A program made the position numbers and the translations under genes. Positions 53,301 to 60,882 of a DNA stretch of 64,000 nt are shown here, piece after piece (position 1 is the stretch's first letter; each line of letters starts with the position of its first letter). Origin of the DNA: Escherichia coli (GTDB lineage Bacteria; Pseudomonadota; Gammaproteobacteria; Enterobacterales; Enterobacteriaceae); assembly GCF_044324875.1 (NCBI RefSeq), contig NZ_CP172185.1; one strand, 5' to 3'. A model generated the notes under the pieces. It worked only from the letters and a program-made list of their open reading frames with translations, had not been told where the DNA came from and did no database searches.

Positions 53301-53400
53301 TGCCGGATGCAGCGTGAACGCCTTATCCGGCCTACAAAATAGCGCAAATTCAATATATTGCACCATCTTCCCAGGCCTGATAAGCGTAGCGCATCAGGCA
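53301..53400. repeat. REP pair (BIME) between ybfP and pgm
   Basis: tgccggatgcagcgtgaacgccttatccggcctac ... caggcctgataagcgtagcgcatcaggca; nearly identical to the copy at 60721..60820. Confidence 0.85.
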
Positions 53401-53454
53401 GTCATAAGTAAAAAAGGGCGATCTTCCGACCGCCCTTTTTCTTATTTAATGTGT

Positions 53455-55095
53455 TTACGCGTTTTTCAGAACTTCGCTAACAATCTCAACCGCTTCTTTC
53501 TCGATCTGCTTGCGATGCTCTTCACCGAGGAAGCTTTCGCAATAAATCTTGTACGCGTCTTCCGTGCCTGACGGACGCGCGGCGAACCAGCCGTTGTCAG
53601 TCATCACTTTCAGACCGCCGATAGAAGCACCGTTGCCCGGTGCCGCCGTCAGGCGCGCGGTGATCGGGTCGCCTGCCAGGGTGCTGGCGCTCACCATTTC
53701 CGGAGACAGCTTAGACAACGCCGCTTTTTGTGCGGAAGTCGCAGCTGCCTGCAAACGGTTGTAGCTCGGCGCACCAAAGCGTTTTGCCAGTTCGTTGTAG
53801 TGTTCCTGCGGGTTCTTACCGGTGACAGCGGTGATTTCCGCCGCCAGCAGACACATGATGATGCCGTCTTTGTCGGTGGACCACGGCGTGCCGTCGAAAC
53901 GCAGGAAGGAAGCCCCTGCGCTCTCTTCGCCGCCAAAGCCGAAGCTGCCGTCGAACAGACCATCAACAAACCATTTGAAACCTACCGGGACTTCTACCAG
54001 CTTACGGCCCAAGTCATTGACCACACGGTCGATCATCGCAGATGAAACCAGCGTTTTACCGACAGCAACATCTTTGCCCCACTGCGGACGATGCTGGAAC
54101 AGGTAGTTGATCGCCACCGCCAGGTAGTGGTTCGGATTCATCAAACCTGCCGGAGTGACGATACCGTGACGGTCATAATCCGGGTCGTTAGCAAACGCCA
54201 GATCGAACTTATCACGCAGTGCCAGCAGGCCCGCCATCGCACACTCGGAGGAGCAGTCCATACGGATCGCACCGTCTTTATCGAGGTGCATAAAGCGGAA
54301 GGTTTGATCGACCTGATCGTTAACGATGGTCAGGTTGAGGTTGTAATACTCGCCAATGCGCTTCCAGTATTCGATACCGGAACCGCCCAACGGATCAACG
54401 CCCAGCGTCAGGCCCGCTTTCTGAATCGCCGCCATATCAACGATATCGGCCAGCCCTTCCACGAACGGCTGCACCAGATCCTGCTCTTTCACATGACCGG
54501 ATGCCATCGCTTCGTCGAGGGAGATACGCTTCACGCCTTTCAGGCCATCGGCCATCAGTGCGTTGGCCCTGTCTTCCACCACTTTGGTGACGTTGGTATC
54601 AGCCGGGCCACCATTTGGCGGATTGTACTTGATACCACCATCTTCCGGCGGGTTATGGGACGGTGTAATCACGATACCGTCTGCCAGCGGGCCACCTTTT
54701 TTATTGTGAACCAGGATGGCATTGGAAACGGCAGGCGTCGGAGTGAAGCCATTGTTTTCCTGCACAATAACATCTACGCCGTTCGCTGCCAGCACTTCCA
54801 GTACGGAAATGAACGCAGGCTCGGACAGAGCGTGAGTATCTTTACCCACATAGCAAGGGCCAGTGATGCCGTTTTTCGCACGTTCTTCAGCAATTGCCTG
54901 AGCGATCGCCAGAATGTGCGGCTCGTTAAAGCTGTGGCGCGCTGCACTGCCACGGTGACCGGAAGTACCGAATTTCACCGCGTGCTCCGCATTCCCTGCT
55001 TCTGGTTTCAGTACATAATATTGCGCCGTCAGTTGGGCGACGTTAATCAAATCACTCTGTTGTGCAGGTTGGCCTGCACGATTGTGGATTGCCAT
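53455..55095 (-). CDS. pgm: phosphoglucomutase
   Basis: [32 protein letters not shown]...GTSGHRGSA...; 546 aa from the MAIHN start. Confidence 0.95.
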
Positions 55096-55120
55096 TGCTT
55101 TGTCCTTTGTCTGCAACGTT

Positions 55121-55666
55121 TTAGATAGTTCCGCAAACCTTCTCAATCAATTCCGCCGGGAATTGCATCGACTGCATGATGTGTTCGATCATGCTGCATT
55201 TACGGCCGGTGTTGGTGTTGGTGATCACCCAATACGGCGTGCCTGGCACATGTTTCGGCTTGGTCTGATTACCATTTTTCAGCAGCGTTTGTTCATCTGC
55301 CGCAAAGTAAACGCGTGTACGACCGTGCAACGATTCCGTTGCTTCGGCAAACGCCTGGGCGTCAAGAGAATATAGTGTAGACAACAGCAGCATAAAGCGA
55401 TTGACCGCTCGCTTTTGCTCTGCGTATTCATCCGAAAGCAGAAGTTCACGCATTGCGCGAACCTTGTCTTTAATCGTTTTGACCGGCTTCGCTTCGACGA
55501 TAGCAGGTGACGCAACGCGAACCTCTTTCGTCACCGGAGCAGCAGGCTGTGATGCGGCGGAAAATTTCAACATACGCCGTAAAATGTCGGATGCGCTCTC
55601 GCCGATATGCTTAGTGTGGCTGGCAATATAGCTGTAGAGTTCATCATCAACTTCAATCGTTTTCAT
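55121..55666 (-). CDS. seqA: replication-initiation negative regulator SeqA
   Basis: [35 protein letters not shown]...; 181 aa from the MKTIEV start. Confidence 0.93.
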
Positions 55667-55850
55667 CTTAATCCAGTGCAGTGTCTTAGCTGAATACAAG
55701 TCGCCAGGAGTATATGAATAAATCCCGGCAGCGGATAGCGTCAAGCCTGGCTTGCAGAAAAACTCGGAATAAACCTTATTTGTTGCAGCCCTGTGGCACA
55801 ATGGTCAACATAATACCCTAACCCGACAACGCGAAAAAAAGAACTTTGCC

Positions 55851-58497: not shown

Positions 58498-58536
58498 TAC
58501 ACGGGAAATAAGAAAAGCGAGAGTTACAGCTCTCAC

Positions 58537-58863
58537 TTATTTGTTATTACTGCGAATTTCCTGCCAGACCTTATCACAGTCGGCTTTTACCGCCTGATCA
58601 TTTCCGGTTTGCGTTGCGCGCAGACACTGCTGATAATCCAGTACGCGTACACTTTCCTGGTCGGCAAACTGCTGATGTTGTTTCTCTTTCTTCAGCACGT
58701 TTAACACGCTCTGGCAGGCTTCAATTTTTTCTGGCGAACCTTGTGCGGTGTTGATACAGGCGCTGTATGCCTCTTTCAGACGGCTGTCTTCCTGTGGCGC
58801 GGTTGATTGCGCACAAGCCACCAGCCCCGATGCCATCATGGCGATGAGAATCAGTTTTTTCAT
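58537..58863 (-). CDS. chiQ: lipoprotein ChiQ (YbfN)
   Basis: MKKLILIAMMASGLVACAQ lipobox; 108 aa; downstream of chiP on the same strand. Confidence 0.85.
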   Translation of the reverse strand: MKKLILIAMMASGLVACAQSTAPQEDSRLKEAYSACINTAQGSPEKIEACQSVLNVLKKEKQHQQFADQESVRVLDYQQCLRATQTGNDQAVKADCDKVWQEIRSNNK

Positions 58864-58912
58864 AGCAAATTCCTCAAACGTGCGGCAGGCACAAAACCTG
58901 CCGCGTCGGGCA

Positions 58913-60319
58913 TCAGAAGATGGTGAATGGTGCGATTACCATAAATTTCACGTCACGCTCATCCTGGAAGATGTTGCCGTAACCACCGCCCCAGCTTGGG
59001 ATGTCGGAGTGGTTGTCGTATTCGGTGAAGTGCAGTTTGAACATCGTGCCTTTGGCGCGACCGTCCTGAATGGTGTAGACCGCATCCAGGCTGTAGGCAG
59101 ACTCTTCAATAGTCCGGTTTTTGTCGTAGTACGCATCCGGATTGCTCTGCCAGGTAGCGGGTTTAGCATCCCATGCGTAAACGTAGGAAGCGCCGATGGC
59201 GAAGCCTGGAAGATTCCAGTTTTTCAAGTCATACATCGCACCGAAGAAGACCGCTTTTTCGCCGTTGGCGTTGAAGTCGGAACGGTTATCCCACCAGATA
59301 TCCAGGCGACCGTTCGAGGAAGCGTAGGTTGGAGTCATACGTTGCAGGAAGTATCCCTGCTGACCGTCAGCCTTAACCCAGGTGCCTTCGAGGCGCAAAT
59401 CCACTACGTCAGCCGCCCGGTAACCAAAGGTCAACGCTTGCAGCCAGGCGGTGCCGTCATAAAGATCGTTGACGCTGCGATCGTCAACTTTATCGCGCGT
59501 ACCGTAGAACTGGTAGCTGGTGGTTAACGGGCTACCGGCGATATCAAATTTGTAGCTGGCTTTGGCAAAATATTGATCGATATACCCTTCCGCCTGACCA
59601 AATGCCGCTTCCAGTACGAAGTTATTTTTGAAGTCGTATTTCGCACCGATGGAGTGCAGATAATCAACTTTGGTGGTTTTATCGTTCTGATAAAACTCAT
59701 CCATTTCCAGATGCCACGGTGCTTTGTATTCGTTGGTCCACATGTAGGAGAAACTCAACGCACCAGCATCGCCGTAATCAAAATTCGCCCCGGCTTCCGC
59801 CCCCTGATAAGTACCCGGCATAAAGCTCCAGTGCGGCGCTAACAGCGTTTGACCAGTTGGCTGAATGTAACCTGCCCTCGCCCAAACCGGACCGTATTTA
59901 AATTTGGCCGCTGCTTTATACAGGCTTATACCGCTTTTGTCGCCGGACCAGTCTTCGTCATAGGCTTTATTGCTTTTTGAAAACGCGATTTCGTTCGGGT
60001 GAGAGCTGTCACCGTTTTCCGCCATTTCAATCGCCGTAAACGCAGCAATATCAAGGCCGAACATATCAGCAGCATAACCAGACTGAAAATCGAGGTTGGC
60101 GTTCCAGGTGGAGTGAGAAAGGTTGGTTTTGTATTTGTCGCCGTCGGTAACATCTTTACGGTCGCGTTCACGCTGCCAGTAATAGATACCGCCGGTTAAG
60201 GTTGAATCGTCGATAAATCCTTCGGCGCGAGCCTCCGGCATTGCCATAAAGCCCGACATTGCTGTAACACCGGCGATAGCCAGCGCCAGCGTACTACGTT
60301 TGCCACTAAACGTACGCAT
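58913..60319 (-). CDS. chiP: chitoporin (chitooligosaccharide-specific outer-membrane porin)
   Basis: 468-aa [57 protein letters not shown]... ending in aromatic residue F. Confidence 0.9.
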
Positions 60320-60720
60320 GGGTTAATCCTCTTTGACGTATAAATTGCTGCACCAAAGGTGAACAGCGAAAAAAATAAAAATTAAAAAAGTAGCGTTGAG
60401 AAAAGTCTCGCTGACTACAGGAACAGACTATTTTTCGCGACGCGAATTATCAATCTCTTTCTGTAACCAGAATGTAAGAACATGAGCAACCGCACATATT
60501 TTGATGATTTTTGTTACAGGGCTTAAGTTTGCGGTTGAAAGGCTTGCAGAAGAATAAAAGCGTGAATTTCCAGCAAGATGAAAGCGGTTACATTTTATTT
60601 AATTATGTTTTGTTATTTTAAATTTATTTTATGGATAAATTGCGAAGCGGAATTAATTCGCGAAGAAAAGCAGAAAAAACGCCGCTGAACGCGGCGTTTT
60701 GGATTGTTTGCATATTTCTT

Positions 60721-60882
60721 GCCGGATGCGGCGTGAACGCCTTATCCGGCCTACAAAAGCACGCAAACTCAATATATTGCAGAGATCATGTAGGCCTGAT
60801 AAGCGTAGCGCATCAGGCAATTTAGCGTTTGAAACTGTTTGTCTGTTCCTTGCCGGATGCAACGTAAACGCCCCATCCGGCA
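60721..60882. repeat. cluster of three REP sequences (BIME) between chiP upstream region and glnS
   Basis: gccggatgcggcgtgaacgccttatccggcctac; gtaggcctgataagcgtagcgcatcaggca; gccggatgcaacgtaaacgccccatccggcat. Confidence 0.85.

Follow-up and report, generated by a model that had tools for sequence, protein, structure and literature searches.

Elements of the BIME-1 (RIP) type have been catalogued in E. coli from the early 1990s on, and BIME-2 elements contain DNA gyrase sites. In the definition of Gilson, Bachellier and Hofnung, as summarized by Ton-Hoang et al. 2012, a BIME-1 is a single-copy combination of a y and a z1 REP around a long, well-conserved L linker, often with an IHF site, and corresponds to the RIP (repetitive IHF-binding palindromic elements) or RIB (reiterative IHF BIME) (PMC3333891). 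BIMEs are cleaved and recombined in vitro by the tyrosine transposase TnpA-REP, which has been proposed to disseminate them (PMC3333891), and a study in the reference list of that paper describes the palindromic units of BIMEs as specific insertion targets of IS1397. REPs have also been documented as join points in rearrangements. REPs were the location of 16 of 40 sequenced lac-amplification junctions and of 22 of 90 novel junctions, and the formation of F'128 by REP-REP recombination is cited in the same work (PMC3161906).

The stretch of E. coli DNA analyzed here (the window; 64,000 nucleotides of contig NZ_CP172185.1) contains two repeats of this type on the + strand, copy A at 53302-53400 and copy B at 60721-60819. 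They are in direct orientation, and their starts are 7,419 bp apart. The original prediction of two repeats of about 100 bp separated by 7.4 kb therefore describes real elements, although the ranges given for them, 53301..53400 and 60721..60820, are out of register with each other by one base. Between the copies are pgm, seqA, ybfF, fldA, fur, chiQ and chiP, as had been listed, and also ybfE, uof and chiZ. We conclude, with a probability of roughly 0.93, that copies A and B are unremarkable BIME-1 elements, independent of each other, which would serve as local intergenic modules rather than reshape the block between them by recombining as a pair.

Each copy consists of a y-type REP, an L linker and a z1-type REP, the two REPs being inverted with respect to each other. 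REP types were assigned from their lengths and from comparison with other REPs of the window rather than from the published consensus figure. The y REP of copy A (53302..53335, + strand) matches the query pattern with one mismatch where no match is expected by chance, and that of copy B (60721..60754, + strand) matches it exactly. Both y REPs end in CTAC, which is GTAG on the - strand (53332-53335 and 60751-60754). The z1 REPs (53373..53400 and 60792..60819, both + strand) are of the short 28-nt form, whereas a longer z2 form is found elsewhere in the window, at 52700-52735 and 23175-23210. The REP arms of both copies are far above chance, with no matches in 100 shuffles. Each whole copy folds as one long hairpin in which the y and z1 arms pair (z of -5.6 and -4.4).

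The L linkers lie at 53336..53372 in copy A and 60755..60791 in copy B, both on the + strand. Both include the linker core CAAAYTCAATATATTGCA, that is, CAAA[T/C]TCAATATATTGCA, which was found twice compared to 0.09 occurrences expected by chance. The common layout and linker core that had been reported for the two repeats are thus present, with the 18-nt cores at 53345-53362 (CAAATTCAATATATTGCA) and 60764-60781 (CAAACTCAATATATTGCA). This core is common to copy A, copy B and K-12, and each of its columns is about 90-100% conserved across 124 family members. The IHF consensus is WATCAANNNNTTR. By direct reading, the stretch ATTCAATATATTG in copy A (53348-53360) agrees with it at eight of the nine specified positions, as does ACTCAATATATTG in copy B (60767-60779). 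The main text of the IHF ChIP-seq paper does not discuss REPs.

Copies A and B share most of the properties of described BIME-1 elements. Both have the inverted y and z1 pair and the long L linker with an IHF-type core, both are intergenic and lie directly after a gene's 3' end, neither is in tandem, and the family has many copies per genome. We found no essential difference. The foot of the copy A z1 REP is CCAG in the window (53371-53374) instead of GTAG; in the alignment it is GTAG in K-12 and GCAG in O17_K12a, and copy B has an intact GTAG foot at 60790-60793. The two copies have in common with BIME-2 elements a y-type REP and an intergenic location, but they lack the longer z2 REP, the short S linker without an IHF core and the tandem arrays; there is a single L-containing unit at each locus. 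The window has examples of BIME-2 at 23134-23305 and 52654-52735.

The two copies had been called near-identical, which overstates their likeness. Aligned in register, they agree at 84 of 99 positions (84.8%). Identity is concentrated in the arms (33 of 34 positions in the y REP and 28 of 28 in the z1 REP) and drops to 23 of 37 in the linker. The longest perfect runs are two of only 28 nt, and homology ends abruptly at both outer edges. A block of 10 nt in the linker, at 53363-53372 in copy A, has no matching bases at all (CCATCTTCCC vs GAGATCATGT). Low identity beyond the REP cores, named in the original prediction as the result that would speak against it, is seen in the linker outside the 18-nt core, which is poorly conserved, and not in the core itself, which is kept.

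How alike A and B are is best judged against the rest of the family. When one genome per species was scanned, the signature of L core plus z1 occurred at 120 or more loci. The type strain of E. albertii has at least 24 copies, Pseudocitrobacter faecalis at least 16 and E. whittamii at least 15, and there are copies in E. coli as well. Random pairs from the family have a mean identity of 84.6%; because this sample was picked by an exact 23-nt signature that A and B also carry, the comparison with them is fair, and identity across the whole family is overstated. In 67% of the 7,260 pairs, the two members resemble each other as much as A and B do, or more, so there is no special relationship between the two copies. 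The suggestion that the repeats were probably just a common BIME subfamily was borne out: they fit the definition of BIME-1, of which there are dozens of copies per genome, and their identity is at the level of the family.

These comparisons also bear on whether one copy could have arisen recently from the other by transposition or conversion, for example through TnpA-REP, so that the pair would record a mobility event. The in vitro activities and proposed role of this enzyme speak for such an event, and the presence/absence polymorphism of both copies among E. coli strains suggests that they are recent at their sites. However, of the 121 other family members, 71 match A no less closely than B does, and 104 match B no less closely than A does. 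The 10-nt linker block that differs at all positions also argues against a recent copy, as does the apparent arrival of copy A together with ybfP in a larger insertion rather than as a naked BIME. We consider this origin extremely improbable, and the reading of A and B as recent duplicates was rejected, their likeness being that of average family members. The similarity between A and B is family-level and does not point to a recent duplication or a functional pairing.

The intrinsic terminator of pgm, a hairpin followed by a U-run on the - strand (53410..53441; fold of -21.9 kcal/mol, z of -5.6), adjoins copy A on its inner side and is kept in genomes without copy A. Since the terminator sits just inside copy A, the copy is downstream of it, between pgm and ybfP. 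The terminator was missed by a simple terminator scan and was confirmed by folding. At the other locus, a terminator-like hairpin on the - strand (60676..60700) lies downstream of glnS; its stem of 10 pairs is followed by a T-run. Copy B and a third REP sit between this hairpin and the glnS stop codon. The third REP is solitary, degenerate and y-like (60852..60885, + strand; hairpin of -24.6 kcal/mol). It lies 32 bp from copy B, on the side of the glnS stop codon, without a second L-containing unit, so the locus is not strictly that of a solitary BIME-1. This REP and its left flank make up a 60-nt direct repeat, 77% identical, of the left end of copy B, 131 bp away.

K-12 MG1655 has both elements at the same sites, and the K-12 RefSeq feature table has no repeat_region features at either one. 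A scan of 52000-62000 at the Rfam gathering threshold returned no family; REPs and BIMEs are outside the families of Rfam, and this result is hence uninformative.

Variation among E. coli genomes affects each copy separately. Of 5,426 complete genomes, 2,013 have copy A together with ybfP. For copy B, presence or absence is a 131-bp polymorphism. The copy is found in about 47% of genomes, and when the long and short alleles are aligned, the boundaries of the polymorphism fall at the 60-nt repeats described above. Roughly 28% of genomes (about 1,500) have both copies in the K-12-type arrangement. In 16 sampled genomes all four combinations occur, and the copies are gained or lost independently. 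The combination in the window itself, kdpE-REP-ybfP-copy A plus copy B, had no match in complete genomes, and it suggests a mosaic lineage. Among the loci retrieved from the genome scan to polarize the presence or absence of the copies, one covered either site, a 1.9-kb contig labelled as a Collinsella MAG, which is 93-95% identical to the ybfP-pgm locus of the window and is not an outgroup. IS1397 is inserted in the loop of the copy A y REP in JNE25-001, and the probe for this IS1397/copy A junction was covered to at least 80% in up to 78 genomes.

If A and B recombined with each other, by homologous recombination or by template switching, then the 7.4-kb block would be duplicated, amplified or deleted, at least transiently in cultures. 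Direct repeats that contain REPs and are separated by a few kb correspond to the substrate described for REP-mediated rearrangements (PMC3161906), A and B share two perfect blocks of 28 nt, and the substrate is common, both copies being present in so many genomes. Using probes for the predicted deletion and tandem-duplication junctions, with presence defined as coverage of at least 80%, we found neither junction in any of the 5,426 complete E. coli genomes, in contrast to the REP-mediated rearrangements that have been described. The best coverage, 61% for the deletion and 59% for the duplication, is that expected for the parental arrangement. The block from pgm to chiP is intact in 5,423 of these genomes. 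Deletion of the block is ruled out as an outcome because fldA, an essential E. coli gene, lies in the interval. Moreover, any other pair among the dozens of BIME-1 copies would serve at least as well as a substrate. The idea that the block could be deleted or duplicated through these repeats is thus without support, and we regard it as very unlikely that they act as a recombination pair. A narrower version, in which exchange or template switching between A and B in genomes with both copies gives unstable 7.4-kb tandem duplications, carried by rare subpopulations and invisible in finished genomes, seems doubtful to us. If such duplications do occur, selection for gene dosage, of fur or fldA for instance, could amplify fur-fldA-seqA-pgm.

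We favor instead the view of A and B as independent BIME-1 elements with local functions. By analogy with the family literature, copy A, after the pgm terminator, and copy B, in the 3' region of glnS ahead of its putative terminator, would be protein-binding, hairpin-forming intergenic modules. IHF is predicted to bind the L motif of each copy. The REPs may form hairpins in the DNA or at mRNA 3' ends, with possible effects on transcripts or topology, and they are likely targets of IS1397 and of the REP-associated transposase TnpA-REP.

The presence of two such elements here matters little. The useful outcome is the negative one, that similar repeats around fur, fldA, seqA and pgm give no indication of having driven structural variation in 5,426 genomes. 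It is also a reminder that likeness at the family level among dispersed REP elements should not be taken to mean that two given copies are specifically related. Population variation of BIMEs is local and consists of the insertion or loss of elements and their targeting by IS1397.

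Two repeats of about 100 bp flank the pgm-chiP block, copy A at 53302-53400 and copy B at 60721-60819. Direct reading, a repeat finder and alignment with flanks all place them as direct repeats on the + strand, 7,419 bp apart from start to start, and in the alignment homology ends sharply at both element boundaries. Each copy is composed of a 34-nt y-type REP (GCCGGATGC[A/G]GCGTGAACGCCTTATCCGGCCTAC), a 37-nt linker containing the core CAAA[T/C]TCAATATATTGCA, and a 28-nt REP (AGGCCTGATAAGCGTAGCGCATCAGGCA) in the opposite orientation. The same three approaches bear out the original prediction that the copies share one REP-linker-REP arrangement. 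All three parts are far above chance expectation: no match to the REP patterns is expected in shuffled sequence, and the linker core was found twice against 0.09 expected. The description of the copies as near-identical holds for the REP arms (33/34 positions in the y REP and 28/28 in the second REP) but not for the whole element, since position by position the copies match at 84/99 (84.8%), the linker matches at only 23 of 37, and one 10-nt linker stretch has no matching base (CCATCTTCCC versus GAGATCATGT). Uninterrupted identity extends over 28 nt at most, in two blocks. Since the two REPs of an element are inverted relative to each other, each whole element folds into a long hairpin (-49.1 kcal/mol and z -5.6 for A; -44.1 kcal/mol and z -4.4 for B). 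A scan of the region against Rfam, which is without REP or BIME families, gave no match at A or B.

The window corresponds, in reverse complement, to ~706-716 kb of E. coli K-12. Copy A follows kdpE(+) and ybfP(-); next to it, on the side of the block, is the intrinsic terminator of pgm (53410-53441; -21.9 kcal/mol, z -5.6), so that copy A is just outside the terminator. The block continues with pgm(-), seqA(-), ybfF(+), ybfE(+), fldA(+), uof-fur(+), chiQ(-), chiP(-) and chiZ, followed by a terminator-like hairpin (60676-60700), copy B, a solitary third REP (60852-60885) and glnS(-). Placed between that hairpin and the stop codon of glnS, copy B probably belongs to the 3' untranslated region of glnS. 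From the literature on the family, the REP hairpins might act on mRNA 3' ends or on local topology.

Copies A and B agree feature by feature with BIME-1, in which one y and one z1 REP, in single copy, enclose a long, well-conserved L linker that often has an IHF site (PMC3333891). The IHF consensus is WATCAANNNNTTR; within the linkers, ATTCAATATATTG and ACTCAATATATTG agree with it at 8 of 9 specified positions. By analogy with other family members, IHF would be bound at the L linker of both copies (PMC3333891, among others). The REPs of E. coli are of types y, z1 and z2, and BIME-2 elements combine y and z2 REPs with short linkers in tandem arrays (PMC3333891). Units of BIME-2 type, unlike A and B, also occur inside the window, at 23134-23305 and 52654-52735; the former, on the - strand, is a tandem array of two units (y REP, short linker, long z REP) with a 95-bp period. 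K-12 MG1655 has both copies at matching positions, so they belong to the long-catalogued K-12 repeat set. The suggestion that the pair is just a common BIME subfamily was right, and A and B resemble each other only at the level of the family.

The comparison with other family members puts a measure on that resemblance. The signature common to A and B (TCAATATATTGCA, 8-14 nt, GCCTGATAAG) was found at 120 loci at least in a scan that took a single genome from each species. The E. albertii type strain has at least 24 of them, Pseudocitrobacter faecalis at least 16 and E. whittamii at least 15; among the matches listed, several are from two E. coli genomes. An alignment of A, B and 122 of the matches listed yields a clear consensus. 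The 7,260 pairs of distinct members among those matches average 84.6% identity across the element, with a median of 86.6%, and 67% of pairs are as alike as A and B or more so; of 121 other members among them, 71 are as close to A as B is, or closer, and 104 as close to B as A is, or closer. The likeness of A and B is therefore a family resemblance and nothing more. Exact E. coli-type BIME-1 signatures also occur in contigs that bear the labels of Bacteroides and Collinsella MAGs and of Desulfosporosinus sp. OT (L032, L071, L072). One of them, L072, shares 93-95% identity with the ybfP-pgm locus of the window; such contigs are probably enterobacterial contamination of the assemblies.

The proposal that recombination between A and B deletes or duplicates the block is unsupported. 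The 8.7 kb at 52600-61300 is found in one place at ≥80% in 5,423 of 5,426 complete E. coli genomes. One probe stood for the junction of a deletion, with a hybrid BIME between A's left flank and B's right flank; the other stood for that of a tandem duplication, with a hybrid BIME between the inner flank to the left of B and the inner flank to the right of A. Each reached ≥80% coverage in 0 of the 5,426 genomes, and the top coverages, 61% and 59%, correspond to the parental arrangement. Deletion is also excluded because fldA, an essential gene of E. coli (PMC3386227), is in the interval. Duplications and amplifications are documented to join at REPs, as at 16/40 lac-amplification junctions and 22/90 novel junctions (PMC3161906). 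The same paper treats 29-32 bp of homology as borderline for homologous recombination; the perfect blocks of A and B are 28 nt. Transient duplications of the block in cultures are therefore possible, but nothing distinguishes this pair from any other two BIME-1 copies.

Variation at copy A involves an accessory segment. The ybfP-BIME-pgm arrangement occurs in only 2,013 of the 5,426 genomes; ybfP and copy A (window 52756-53400) are missing from ~63%, where potE and pgm converge across a 56-bp spacer that holds the terminator only. Examples are A0 34/86, O157:H7 3384 and O104:H4 2011C-3493 (fetched loci L004-L006, ~2320-2420). Because both are absent where potE adjoins pgm, copy A travels with ybfP and is not a naked repeat insertion. 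In the window (51967-52760), kdpE is followed directly by the BIME-2-type unit at 52654-52735 (y REP, short linker, long z REP) and then ybfP, an arrangement common to about 480 complete genomes. K-12 has about 5.1 kb there (speFL, speF, potE, ybfI, ybfG), with a REP at neither junction. The window thus lacks speF-potE here and has a BIME at the junction.

Copy A is also a target for IS1397. In JNE25-001 the element lies exactly in the loop of the y REP (GCGTGAAC | IS | GAACGCC; L003 1018-2452, window ~53319), with ends TGAACTGCACCCCAAA and TTTGGGGTTCAGTTCA and an apparent GAAC target duplication; the insertion in JNE12-007 is likewise in this loop, and the junction probe reaches ≥80% coverage in 78 complete E. 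coli genomes. This is the palindromic-unit-specific targeting known for IS1397, according to references listed in PMC3333891. The foot of the z1 REP in copy A (53371-53374) reads CCAG instead of the conserved GTAG, GCAG in O17_K12a and GTAG in K-12, a series that looks like stepwise decay of a tetranucleotide needed by TnpA-REP (PMC3333891). The z1 arm in the window may thus be inert as a TnpA-REP substrate. The family literature suggests that TnpA-REP could drive mobility or turnover of such copies.

Copy B varies with its neighboring REP. The chiP-glnS spacer is ~576-578 bp in the window and K-12 and 448 bp in many genomes, in which one REP replaces copy B and the third REP (window 60694-60884; fetched loci L002 8260-8480 and L003 9690-9915). 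The 131-bp difference, bounded by a 60-nt direct repeat of 77% identity (repeat-finder family D1), fits either deletion between REPs or BIME insertion beside a resident REP. By identity band, about 2,550 complete E. coli genomes (~47%) have the long allele, with BIME-1 and the third REP; the others have one REP. Inside the block, XJ6.1 has IS200C between fur and chiQ (L129 13740-14198), and chiP bears a pseudogene annotation in O157:H7 3384 (frameshift; L005 7855-9260) and in F5656C1 and 2017.11.01CC (internal stop; L133 and L134 14043-15449). Beyond glnS, A0 34/86 has a DeoR regulator, a D-threonate kinase/dehydrogenase set and a sialidase-family cluster (L004 11585-19263) in place of nagE-nagBACD, another strain-specific replacement bordering the region.

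A and B are gained and lost independently, and all four combinations were found: both copies in the window, K-12 and 8/8 sampled K-12-type genomes; A only in O17_K12a, JNE25-001, 1190 and XJ6.1; B only in O157:H7 3384; and neither in A0 34/86 and O104:H4. We estimate that roughly 1,500 genomes have both (2,013 A-positive minus ~480 window-type, 4/4 of the latter examined being without B). The best matches to 52600-61300 (98.4-98.5% identity) all are without copy B's 131 bp, and the window's combination of a kdpE-ybfP-type copy A locus with copy B has no match among complete E. coli genomes. The window comes from a mosaic lineage or else from a genome that the collection does not include, e.g., Shigella or a draft assembly.

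We conclude that the original observation is real, with the identity overstated and the rearrangement idea unsupported. Copies A and B are common BIME-1 members, and the population variation actually present at A and B is local.
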